Below, one piece after another: positions 33,612 through 58,246 of a stretch of DNA of 64,000 nt. The notes under the pieces are model-generated. The model was not told the origin of the DNA. It was given only the letters and a program-made list of their open reading frames with translations, and made no database searches. The DNA lies in NCBI GenBank assembly GCA_951406725.2, contig OX597822.1, positions 93,558,001 through 93,622,000 of the forward strand. Reading direction: 5' to 3'. The DNA comes from Octopus vulgaris. Taxonomy: Eukaryota. Numbering within the stretch: position 1 is the first letter of the stretch; every line of letters starts with the position of its first letter. The position numbers and the translations under genes are program-made.

Positions 33612-34235
33612 GGAAAGTTTACGAAAAAAACCAAAAAACGAAGGCAAGTGGTGTACAAAACAAACAGATGTATTAGTATAACGCCCAGGAATAGAAAAAG
33701 TCTTTTACGTTTCGAGCCTACGCTCTTCTACAGAAAGGGACACAGAAAAAAACAAGGAGAGAAATAAAATATGTGTAGTGGCTAACGATCTATCATGGCG
33801 ACAGAAGGGTCAGACAGGAGAGCGAAGAATTAGGGGAGATAACAAAGTAAAGATGACCCCCAACATGAAGGTGCGTGTGTGTATAAGAGAAGATGTATGT
33901 GCGTGTGAAAGAGGGCTGGTGGTCTGGACGTGTGCATGTATGCATGTGTAGGTGTGAAAATGTGGGGATGGGAATTGGTCAGTGCTAGTGTGTGGGTGGT
34001 GGGTTGTGATGTGATGTGTAATGTTGTATGGTGTAGTGTGGTGTGGTGTGATTTTGTTGGGAGGTGGGGGAGGCGTGCGTGGGGAAAGCACGGGTGGCGT
34101 GTGGGTTCGGCTGAGGGTTGGGGTAGAGTTGGGGTATGTGGGTGGGCAGAGGGTGGGGATAGAGGTGGGGTATGTGGGAGAGGGTGTAGGGGATAGGATG
34201 GGGGGATGGGAAGGCTAGAGAAGGTGGAGTAGGGA
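33612..34235 (-). mobile_element. Penelope-like element 3' region with hammerhead variant
   Basis: Reverse-complement homologue of ~56330-56865, which follows a GIY-YIG remnant. Confidence 0.75.
33702..33737 (-). ncRNA. Minimal hammerhead variant (core CUGUAGA)
   Basis: Reverse complement cttt CTGTAGA a gagc-gtag-gctc GAAA cg TA aaag; identical to 58211-58246. Confidence 0.7.
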
Positions 34236-36831
34236 CACACACATACGTATATGACGTATATATATATATATATATATATATATATATATATATATATATA
34301 TATATATATATATATATATACATACATACAACATACACACAAATGCATACGCACACATATTGTAGTACATTATTCACATATACATTTGCACATACATGCA
34401 TATTCATACTGGTATGCTGATACAAACACGCAGAAGTACACGTATGCACACACGCGTATAGACACAGTACACTTTCTCATACACACCCGTGTTTGCATAG
34501 GTATAGATGCATAAATATTCTTGTCTTTGCATATATATGTAAAAATATATGCATGTATATATATTATATAGAGAGATTCCTTATGAAGACAGAAATATTG
34601 AATGATTTGATGAGGATAGGAGCACCCTATTGGGTGCGTGTTTGGAGGGTGATAAAGAAAACATCACCATGGACGGCAGCTTTGTTGGTTAGGAGTGTTT
34701 AGGGGAAGTTTTGCGCTTCGTAACTATGGTGTACGAGGTGACGAGAAAAATGCTACAGAGGGAAAGAGTTTGGTGAGGTAATCAGAATATGCAATGCGGA
34801 GGTGCATGAAATTTGACCACTGAGAGAGCTTGAAAGCTATGTGGTGCATGAATGTACCATTTGTTTCTCCAGTTACGTATTTACCCGTATCACTGATACC
34901 TTCCAAGCGTTTTAATCTGTATTACTTGTATGTGTGGCTTCAGCGCTCGCTGCAAAGGGAACCAGTTGGCAGTATTGGCATTATGAGAAGCGTCGAAGGA
35001 CATTTGTAGGTAAATTGTATCATTCGCCTGCTCAGTAATCGGGGCATTCGACTAGATTATCATGAAGACTCTGACTAGTCATACTCTATCTTCTTCCTAG
35101 ACTCGCTGTGTCGCCTCTTTCTGTTTGTCCTATGATTCCTACGGTGGTATCATAAGTTCCTCGGAAATAGCTGATCTATACCATTCTCAATCAAATATCA
35201 TAGTTGTCTGGCTTGATCATTGATGTTAAGGGAGATTCGCTGTGAAGAAAGGATAAAGAGTTGAAATGAGTGTCCTTAATTGTTGATAGTCTACCTCGAT
35301 GGGGAACAAGACTGATCCTGAATAATTAGAAAACTGTTATATTGATATTCAGATCAGAGATGTTGATGTGAGAGATTTGGATTCTCTTTTTTAAAACGAT
35401 AAGATGTGATTTGGGTGTTATTTCTAGTAGGTCGAGAGACCACATAGAAGCTCTTTTGTCTCGTTTAGAGTGATGATGAGGATGGTAGCAATGATGATGC
35501 TGGCGGTAAATGTGGGTTTTGCTTTTGTTGTTATTGTTGTTGATGTTATTTATGTTGCTAATTTCGCACCAACTACAGTGGCATCTCGGGTCATTTCGGT
35601 AAAGCTATTTTTTTATGGCTACACAAGTGCAACTCTGTTTTTATAGTGTGTGTATGTGTGCGCGCGCATGTGTATGTGACCGTTTGTGTATGTGCGTGTG
35701 TGTATAAAATGTTTATGTATGTGCGTACGTGTGTGTGCGTATGTATCATTGTTTTTAAATGGAATTCATGTTATGGCGATTGTACATGTTAGGTAGGTAC
35801 ACACTCGCTACAAATGTCTTTTAAAGGTGTTTCACATGGAACTAGCGTATACAAAACCGAGTTTGTTCGGTGTATCTGTATTCCAGGGAGAAAGATGTGA
35901 CTATAACTTTTCTGACAGCTGGTAGCTGTGATTACTGTTGAAGTGAAGGACTTAGCCGGTGTGAATGAGTTTCCGCTAAAGTGAAGTTTCCACATGGTTG
36001 CATGTGCTTCAAGCGGATAAATAATATCAGGCATGGAAGGGAAGGGCTTCTCAAACGTTTACTTTTTGATTGTGAAACCGATATCTTCCAAGGTGTATTT
36101 CCGTTTCTGTTCATAGATATGTTTAAGTAGCACAGAAGTGTTGTTGACATAAGCGGCCGCTATAGCATCTGTTGGATGATTTGCAACTTAGCCAATGAAC
36201 GGATCATGAATTTTAAGCAATTTAGCGGCACGCCTTTTCGATCCCTTGAAACCGTGTTCGCAAGACAAAACTGAAAGCATCGCTCACTGCATAACTAAAA
36301 ATTTTTCTTCGCATATACGTTGTTTTCTCTCCAATTGAGCAAAAGAATACGCCCAATTCTTTCACCAACCTCCCCTTTTTTTCCTTTATTTTTATTTTTA
36401 TTTACCAGACCACTAAATACACTGCCTAATCAACAAATGTTAGATGTCTTGATTTTGTTTCAGACTCATGCCCCGTACGTAGTGTGTGACACGGTTTTAA
36501 TAACAGTTAAGATTAGTTACAAAGAAAACACATGAAGAAATTTTTACGGATATGTTTTGACTACTCACTCCAATGTTTGTACATATCCATCCATACACAG
36601 AAGCTCTGCTTTCTGTCTGTCCGTCTGTCTGTTTCTCTCCCTTCCACTATCTCTCTCTCTTTCTCTCTCTCCCCCTCTCTCTCTCTCTATTTATCTGTCC
36701 CCTTTCCTCTTGTCTTCTTCCTTGGCTGTCTTTCTTTCCCCCTCTGTCTCACTATATGTGTGTGTGTGTGTGTATACAGAGAGAGAGAGAGAGAGAGAAA
36801 GAGAGAGAAAGGAGAGAAAGAGATGTAGATA

Positions 36832-37131
36832 AACCAAAGTGTACAGTATTATAGATCCATTACGGCCGATCTTACCAACTGGTTTCGCAATAGGTTTTAA
36901 AACCGGACGTTAGGTAACAGCATGGTTAAGTAAATACCGCGTGCTCTTCAGAGCTAGCAGGTATGGAAAAAAATACGGTGACTGATTGGACGTGAAAAGT
37001 TACATCCGGTTTATGGATGCTGTAAAAAAAAATAAAAAGACGAAACGAGGCTATAGGAAGCGAATTGAGAAAGGGTGATATCAAGTGGTAAGATCGGCCG
37101 TGATGGATTTATAATAATGTACACTTTGATT
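36832..37131. mobile_element. MITE-like element with ~48-bp TIRs
   Basis: caaagtgtacagtattatagatccattacggccgatcttacca / tggtaagatcggccgtgatggatttataataatgtacactttg. Confidence 0.75.
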
Positions 37132-37432
37132 AACGTGCCTACTGTACTGATAAATATACGAGTGCATAATTGTCAATGAATACGTAGACGACTAATATAT
37201 ATATTAGAACACGCAATACCGTGTTATTTGAGTGGACTCGTAGTGCGCAAAATCACTCGTATTGATATCGTTGACTGACGATCACTGCCTCCTACGGCCA
37301 TCGGAATTCCCTGATCACGTGATTTCGCTGTTTTGAGCACTTTAATGAAAAAACATCTGGGTGCATCATAACTGTCGAATCTACCGTCAGCCATATATAT
37401 AATATCAGTGTCCATTCAGGCACTGATATTCT

Positions 37433-37516
37433 ATTTATCACTGCTTTATTCACTACGAGTCCATTTATCACTGTTTTATTCACTACGAGTCCATTTATCA
37501 CTGTTTTATTCACTAC
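37433..37516. repeat. 30-bp tandem repeat, ~2.8 copies
   Basis: Unit atttatcactgttttattcactacgagtcc; its last 12 nt are the reverse complement of ggactcgtagtg at ~37234. Confidence 0.85.
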
Positions 37517-57335: not shown

Positions 57336-57712
57336 TTACTCTTTTACTTGTTTCAGTCATTTGACTGCGGCCATGCTGGAGCACCGCCTTTAGTCGAGCA
57401 AATCGACCCCGGGACTTATTCTTTGTAAGCCCAGTACTTATTCTATCGGTCTCTTTTGCCGAACCGCTAAGTGACGGGGACGTAAACACACCAGCATCGG
57501 TTGTCAAGCAATGCTAGGGGGACAAACACAGACACACAAACATAAACACACATACATATATACGACAGGCTTCTTTCAGTTTCCGTCTACCAAATCCACT
57601 CACATGTCTTTGGTCGGCCTGAGCCTATAGTAGAAGACACTTGCCCAAGATGCCACGCAGTGGGGCTGAACCCGGAACCATGTGGTTGGTAAGCAAGCTA
57701 CTTACCACACAG
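57336..57712 (-). mobile_element. SINE family A
   Basis: Near-consensus reverse complement. Confidence 0.85.
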
Positions 57713-57777
57713 CAAACAAAATAGCTAGTTATAAAATCTCAAGAAGAGATAGAGTAATAGAGTAGTAACGTATACTA

Positions 57778-58073
57778 AACAGTAAAGCCAGTCGTCACAT
57801 CAAAGTGGCTGTTGAATGTTACTACTATTTTAACCCCAGTGCGCAGGTGCTCGCGGCTGATGATGAGCCAAATAGCTCGAAACTGAGTCAGTCTCGCGAT
57901 CCTGTTAGCTGGTGGAGGATAGTAGAGTTTCGCGCCCGCTGCAAATGATATATTTATTGTATATAAAGAATGCAGAACGTTGCACCGATAATCAGTTGGC
58001 GGAGAATCTGCCTGGGGTTAAACCAGTAGTAATATTCAACTGTCACTTTGATGTGGCGACTGACTTTGTTGTT
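57778..58073. repeat. Imperfect ~60-bp inverted repeat enclosing a hammerhead
   Basis: aaagccagtcgtcacatcaaagtgg...ttttaaccccag / ctggggttaaaa...tcactttgatgtggcgactgacttt. Confidence 0.85.
57851..57899 (+). ncRNA. Type I hammerhead ribozyme, canonical core
   Basis: tcgcgg CTGATGA t gagc-caaata-gctc GAAA ctg-agt-cag TC tcgcga; all three stems close; predicted cleavage after 57893. Confidence 0.88.
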
Positions 58074-58210
58074 AATACACACACACACACACACACACAC
58101 ACACACATATATATATATAAAGAGAGTTTACGAAAAAAAACGAAAGACGAAGACAGGTGGTGTACAAAACAAACAGATGTATTAGTATAACGCTCAGGAA
58201 TAGAAAAAGT

Positions 58211-58246
58211 CTTTTACGTTTCGAGCCTACGCTCTTCTACAGAAAG
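58211..58246 (-). ncRNA. Minimal hammerhead variant (core CUGUAGA) in a short PLE-end element (~58120-58355)
   Basis: Identical to 33702-33737; element bounded by TA microsatellites. Confidence 0.7.

Follow-up and report, generated by a model that had tools for sequence, protein, structure and literature searches.

Hammerhead ribozymes are expected to have A at core position 6, a nucleotide that is taken to be invariant and forms part of the descriptors with which such motifs are searched for, which raises the question of what a retroelement does with hammerhead motifs that have U at this position. The case considered here comes from a stretch of 64,000 nucleotides (nt) of Octopus vulgaris DNA (assembly GCA_951406725.2, contig OX597822.1, positions 93,558,001 to 93,622,000 of the forward strand; referred to as the window), in which the core CUGUAGA is found three times, as the initial annotation had claimed: at 33727-33733(-), 56803-56809(+) and 58236-58242(-), each time in hammerhead layout, CUUU-CUGUAGA-A-GAGC(loop)GCUC-GAAACGUA-AAAG. 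Two of these sites, at 33702..33737(-) with U6 at 33730 and at 58211..58246(-) with U6 at 58239, are intact minimal type I motifs, composed of CUUU (4-bp stem I), CUGUAGA (core positions 3-9, with U6), an extra A, GAGC GUAG GCUC (4-bp stem II and its loop), GAA (G12-A14), ACGU (the palindrome A15.1-C-G-U16.1), A17 and AAAG (stem I); the identity between them, first seen over 36 nt, spans 79 nt. The third copy (56799..56834(+), U6 at 56806) has retained U6 and decayed elsewhere (G12 to A, palindrome ACGU to ACUU). As described below, U6 is fixed throughout the family, and our preferred explanation, held with middling confidence, is that of an attenuated, self-locked and probably protein-assisted ribozyme with putative residual cleavage that is kept under selection.

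The motif is carried by a Penelope-like element (PLE), and the proposed tie to an element with a GIY-YIG endonuclease is supported by full-length copies. In blastn alignments the window copies are 5'-truncated ends collinear with full-length elements. With the endonuclease remnant of the window as query, 150 scored matches among 5,439 genome candidates were obtained, and the motif lies downstream, on the same strand, in 25 of 30 fetched endonuclease loci as well as in 19 of 20 loci with a long open reading frame (ORF), always with U6. Full-length copies encode both reverse transcriptase (RT) and GIY-YIG domains, and in four loci (L090, L091, L092 and L094) the ORF is flanked by two motifs at a distance of 4.4-4.6 kb from each other. 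The pseudo-long terminal repeats (pseudo-LTRs) of L094 are 99.7% identical over 643 nt, and a head-to-tail trimer of the whole element (L327-L328, G000:C6:117388000-117407000), with four U6 motifs and units of 4,470-4,477 nt, has units that are 99.6-99.7% identical; these near-identical pseudo-LTRs and trimer units indicate recent activity. The single ORF of the full-length copies encodes the RT followed by the endonuclease (RVT_1 E 8e-8 and 1e-7; GIY-YIG E 0.006, under the Pfam cut-off), and relatives have the same two domains; the window remnant itself was not recognised in the Pfam search and was identified through the full-length copies. The endonuclease is of the CCHH type, with CSLC between its GIY and YIG halves, conserved histidines and the linker CSRPxCRTC. 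A CCHH motif together with a CX2-5CxxC linker defines the C-terminal EN+ Neptune/Nematis type (PMC8557442), to which the element belongs by its domains and linker; no named reference element with which Neptune could be told from Nematis was among the 120 matches listed. Pseudo-LTRs formed via partial tandem insertion, (TA)n targets and 5' truncation are all present, and the window motifs are confirmed as PLE hammerheads of the minimal type I that lie in the 3' pseudo-LTR.

How general is U6? A pattern search of the genome (2.8 Gb, 227 contigs) with positions 6 and 7 free gave 17,902 exact motif matches as compared to 0 for the reversed control, and the motif family is therefore not due to chance. 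U6 is present in 95 of the first 100 of these matches and A6 in only 199 matches in all, largely scattered among the subfamilies together with their flanks. When the search was anchored in the flanks and the whole core left free, 18,792 copies were obtained; among the first 100, U6 is present in 97 and A6 in none. For the oldest flank type (850 copies), position 6 in the first 100 reads U in 89 cases, C in 8 and A in 3, which leaves a separate older A6 subfamily unsupported, a small A6 lineage within it being possible. In 600 kb taken at blind-chosen positions, the U6 family accounts for 10 of 19 profile matches and all eight readable copies have U6; this sample scales roughly to tens of thousands of family copies. 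Both pseudo-LTRs of full-length copies, and all subfamilies from the old to the youngest, read CUGUNGA, N7 being A, C, G or U depending on the subfamily. Of the variant core CUGUAGA as initially annotated, the U6 part is thus fixed family-wide whereas the A7 part does not hold, and CUGUNGA describes it better. In contigs from public runs (four runs, three organism codes), position 6 (58239) is absent from the differences listed at a level of at least 2%, and N7 shows all three other letters. Along the subfamily series N7 reads U, C, G/A, A, C, U, which is more change than the rate at fourfold sites suggests for one position. An alternative register, with an inserted U and the following A as position 6, was rejected: it breaks the C3-G8 spacing, and an A6 sister family aligns without gaps. 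The hammerhead register and the A6U change are supported by the genome-wide matches and the conserved anatomy. Held against the core of the published minimal hammerhead ribozyme (min-HHR), C3 U4 G5 A6 N7 G8 A9, the motif agrees at six positions and departs from it at position 6; given this departure, and with cleavage putative, we class it as a hammerhead variant.

Selection on the motif was assessed from five subfamily majority sequences, for which copies were grouped by their flanks only (94 of 153 aligned copies used). Between these majorities, 0 of 30 constrained motif positions have changed as compared to 64 of 147 flank positions, and in the endonuclease 27 of 73 fourfold-degenerate sites differ between the oldest and the youngest subfamily; at this fourfold-site rate, the chance of 11 unchanged core positions is ~0.006. 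Changes in the motif occur at N7 and H17 only, those at H17 being confined to A/U/C, with C by one count in single copies, while G12 A13 A14 and A15.1-U16.1 are invariant in the majorities and the extra A after A9, G10.1-C11.1 and the palindrome ACGU are found in all subfamilies. The ORF starts far downstream of the motif, and coding constraint was rejected as an explanation, since the motif lies outside the ORF and its two variable positions, 23 nt apart, are not in one codon phase. In a seven-group version, 1 of 30 motif and 60 of 133 flank positions have changed; the lone motif change, an A6 majority in a group of nine, is a sampling artefact, as five of the copies had been chosen by an A6 search and the four unbiased ones have 3 U and 1 C. 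Across families, stem I has changed on both sides at three of its four pairs with 88 of 88 cells paired, in a table of 11 hand-picked related rows, hence without a probability, and with a stem II invariance that stems partly from the design of the search pattern. U6 is not decay.

Two further groups of motifs help to place U6. A sister family, B, has 11,560 pattern matches in the genome; among the first 100, position 6 is A in 98 and U4C is seen in 74. This A6 family also has the extra A that follows A9, and no coding region was detected upstream of the family B copies fetched. Within the window, family B is represented at 14611-14745(+) and about 48710-48870(-), both with a CCGACGA (U4C) core, and some older-looking copies (L134, L179, L181) have G at position 17. 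A half motif with the canonical core CUGAAGA, which had been placed at ~53465-53480 and read as a related end with the same agagc stem, is indeed present, at 53482-53488 (within 53476..53555(-)); of its stem II only the 5' strand is there, a (TA)n run cutting off the rest. It is not an end of the U6 family, as the upstream sequence aligns with family B, and therefore does not demonstrate both cores within one family. The second group is a single record, MDSQ01015757.1 (L293:1495-1532(-)), which is filed as metagenome, AT-rich and animal-like; its core is CUGUGGA, its 5-bp stem I has another sequence, and it carries GUC. It is an independent case of a U6 minimal hammerhead; no PLE protein match was found within 1.5 kb. 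The other five of the six metagenome pattern matches were rejected as GC-rich chance matches without H17 or stem I.

Are RNAs cut at the motif used as templates for insertion? Copies joined to (TA)n number 48 at the cut site, and a TA in loop II that served as control has 42 (p 0.6). Pseudo-LTR/body junctions were mapped in the youngest subfamily, where 174 were matched and 100 of them listed; the 90 further loci that were fetched collapse to 80 distinct rows. In 0 of these 80 does the upstream pseudo-LTR begin at the cut site or up to 3 nt from it; one starts within 10 nt, five start farther downstream and 74 at least 41 nt upstream, with a shared start 97 nt upstream of the cut site in seven rows from five loci. 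Among 104 motif-bearing copies, 39 have their 5' ends 80-110 nt upstream and six in the next 40 nt, a peak that imperfect alignment references may inflate. Start sites within the pseudo-LTR have been described for PLEs (PMC6765202). Five short tandem arrays (L326 at G000:C8:18599500-18604000, L310, L311, L314 and L322), with units of ~450-620 nt and one U6 motif each, join the point 97 nt upstream of the cut (or +72, +102) to differing body positions, as would be expected if an RNA with a fixed 5' end upstream of the ribozyme served as a circular template or if copying jumped between templates; the arrays look like one-off by-products and not like a separate family. Insertion thus uses RNA that either is uncut or has been re-ligated without a seam, a result that fits a slow as well as a dead ribozyme, because the hammerhead of the Anolis PLE Poseidon PAc (Frangieh et al. 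2024) cleaves, yet leaves no reads at its cut site (PMC11167929).

A possible reason for U6 is suggested by predicted folds. In 48-nt pieces with U6, the predicted pairs are U6-A15.1, G5-C and U4-G of the ACGU palindrome, with pairing probabilities P(U6:A15.1) of 0.81 for the window copy, 0.98 for the youngest and the oldest subfamily, 0.42 for C7, 0.13 for G7 and 0.81 for L293; natural A6 copies from the same subfamilies are predicted as an open hammerhead in four of five cases. U6 is thereby predicted to act twice, through the loss of the A6 contacts and through formation of a closed rod in which neither the U-turn nor the dimerisation site is exposed. According to the preferred explanation, U6 would slow the ribozyme to the point that cutting is rare, takes place in the dimer and is probably aided by the element protein, and most element RNA would stay uncut and become the template for new insertions. 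Element RNA would start ~97 nt upstream of the cut site, likely from an internal promoter as judged from the junctions, and reverse transcription would start ~100 nt downstream of it; with these two end points, each insertion would need a motif that is uncut or re-ligated, and a slow core would be favoured for that reason. Residual cleavage would explain why G8, G12, C3-G8, A15.1-U16.1 and H17 are still kept. There is precedent for both parts of this model: a natural A6C hammerhead retains low activity (PMC3088659; PMC7151607), and a PLE hammerhead is protein-assisted and dispensable for insertion in vitro (PMC11167929).

Several observations weigh against an attenuated, cleaving ribozyme. The folding ignores tertiary energy, the G7 subfamily copy folded without the lock, and the genomic junctions are without any sign of cutting, both for pseudo-LTR starts and for truncations. 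Loop II, which is free for catalysis, is also invariant among the subfamily majorities, and part of the constraint is therefore not catalytic. Tandem G-A pairs are found in minimal-hammerhead structures, and through such pairs the rod itself could explain the retention of G8, A9, G12, A13 and A14. In a pairwise scan, activity was low for every single mutant of the CUGA turn (PMC9901934); A6C brought one ribozyme down to 3.6e-6/min in 0.3 mM Mg2+ (PMC7151607); and the minimal hammerheads of PLEs have weak activity even where A6 is present (PMC4209133).

The strongest rival, which we consider somewhat less probable though plausible, is a closed irregular hairpin that does not cleave and has been retained because the RT-endonuclease binds to it or is positioned by it, or because it serves RNA pairing; the family would then have spread without self-cleavage, an alternative that the initial annotation had already named and that the genomic junctions fit. 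This rival accommodates the predicted rod with its U6:A15.1 pair, the lack of ends at the cut site, tandem arrays that join 72-102 nt upstream of it to variable body positions, and the invariant loop II; moreover, insertion in vitro is independent of cleavage (PMC11167929), Naiad elements thrive without canonical hammerheads (PMC8557442), and family B, too, has a fixed change in the U-turn, U4C. What such a hairpin does not account for is that C3 and U16.1, a mismatch in the rod, never change, that H17 stays A/U/C in the subfamily majorities, and that the catalytic G8 and G12 are unaltered in every subfamily and in L293, while the missing ends are uninformative in view of the PAc hammerhead. 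A more far-reaching proposal, which we rate as less likely than not, sees in A6U a 'safety catch' that has arisen repeatedly and been selected in animal PLEs: the U-turn would pair with the dimerisation palindrome, hold the ribozyme off on new RNA, which would thereby stay whole for reverse transcription, and be opened by the element protein or a second copy. That the sequence is a dead relic, carried without function since A6U killed the ribozyme in a founder element, is improbable: single copies do decay freely after insertion, mostly at CpG, the 56799 copy being an example, but the unchanged motif positions set against flank and fourfold sites, with changes exactly at N7 and H17, largely refute it. 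Least probable of all is a fully active variant, cleaving as well as its A6 relatives, in which the extra A next to A9 or contacts of the loops would make up for U6 in the dimer, since the long persistence and recurrence of U6 that would favour it stand against a scan of another hammerhead in which none of all double mutants showed the CUGA turn rescued by a second site (PMC9901934), the predicted misfold of U6 copies and the presence of the extra A in A6 family B.

Apart from position 6, the motif closely resembles the metazoan PLE min-HHR (Cervera and De la Pena 2014, PMC4209133), with which the U6 family shares its site in the pseudo-LTR, a short stem I, an extra nucleotide between A9 and G10.1, G10.1-C11.1, the lack of a helix III, a palindromic 15.1-16.1 segment, and an occurrence mostly as solo copies with pairs around full ORFs. 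It differs in that U6 is family-wide here, whereas the core variant described in the available part of that paper is U3-A8 and not A6U, and in a stem II of 4 bp as opposed to 7-8; two of its supplementary files contain no U6 strings. A natural substitution at core position 6 is also known from the phage Bcep176 hammerhead, A6C (PMC3088659, PMC7151607). This, however, is C and not U, and a single phage ribozyme as compared to tens of thousands of retroelement copies; its cleavage has been measured as slow in Mg2+ and faster in Mn2+ (PMC7151607), whereas cleavage in the U6 family is putative. Like the U6 family, PAc has a hammerhead in the pseudo-LTR, AT-rich targets and insertions from uncut RNA without cut-site ends (PMC11167929); in contrast, its motif cleaves with protein help, and the U6 element has the CX4CxxC linker of Neptune/Nematis and an ORF start far downstream. 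Non-LTR retrozymes (bioRxiv 10.64898/2026.07.22.740005) are tandem repeats derived from PLE pseudo-LTRs with one type I hammerhead per unit, and the U6 arrays are similar in their ~450-620 nt units with one hammerhead each and differ in the minimal U6 motif and in a junction upstream of the ribozyme. In the literature covered, including the supplement of PMC8557442, there is no report of a natural A6U in PLEs; this coverage is incomplete, and Lunse et al. 2017 could hold such rows. The architecture is that of the known min-HHR; the present analysis adds a test for selection on the motif, a map of the insertion junctions and the predicted lock.

Why PLEs keep a hammerhead is an open question in the field (PMC8557442, PMC11167929). 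The U6 family offers a natural test, with matched U6 and A6 copies, a dated subfamily series and a definite prediction of the fold. The answer would be either that a hammerhead can function in vivo in the absence of A6 or that selection keeps a ribozyme fold for a role other than cutting. As A6 is part of the search descriptors, an A6U class of tens of thousands of copies would be invisible to standard surveys, and if the 'safety catch' were true, a large class of switchable hammerheads across animals would have escaped searches with a strict core.

The remaining features of the window fit into this picture as follows. The 33702 motif lies in a 5'-truncated 3' end of the element (3' untranslated region (UTR) and pseudo-LTR, 33605..34235(-), delimited by blastn against longer copies) that has (TA)n at its end, and the 58211 motif in a short solo pseudo-LTR copy (58112..58357(-)) with (TA)n runs on either side. 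The GIY-YIG remnant (55866..56158(+)) is a C-terminal part, frameshifted and 5'-truncated at (TA)n, with a CxxC between GIY/YIG-like halves and HH; behind it the same insertion continues through a CT/CA-rich 3' UTR and a pseudo-LTR and has lost part of its tail to a deletion (56159..56875(+)). The motif at 56799 begins 641 nt past the stop at 56156-56158, in line with the ~640 bp noted before. The terminal fragments seen at ~24120, ~53330 and ~53740 are pieces of 3' pseudo-LTR: one of an older subfamily that begins in loop II (24123..24237(+)), one of the U6 family that begins within the motif, at AAACGUU (53326..53420(-)), and a U6-family tail without the motif (53718..53800(-)). An Rfam scan of the window listed 150 of 272 weak matches, among which there was no hammerhead family, all being microsatellite-driven microRNA matches. 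A canonical hammerhead, with CUGAUGA, an extra U, a GAGC/GCUC stem II, a longer helix III, GUC and a 6-bp stem I, is located at 57851-57897(+); its type has six pattern matches in the genome, at least three of them with related flanks, and represents a small old family. Finally, copies of an unrelated SINE-like dispersed repeat adjoin the Penelope fragments at 52970-53300 and 57330-57720, and the same repeat also flanks L090 and L091.

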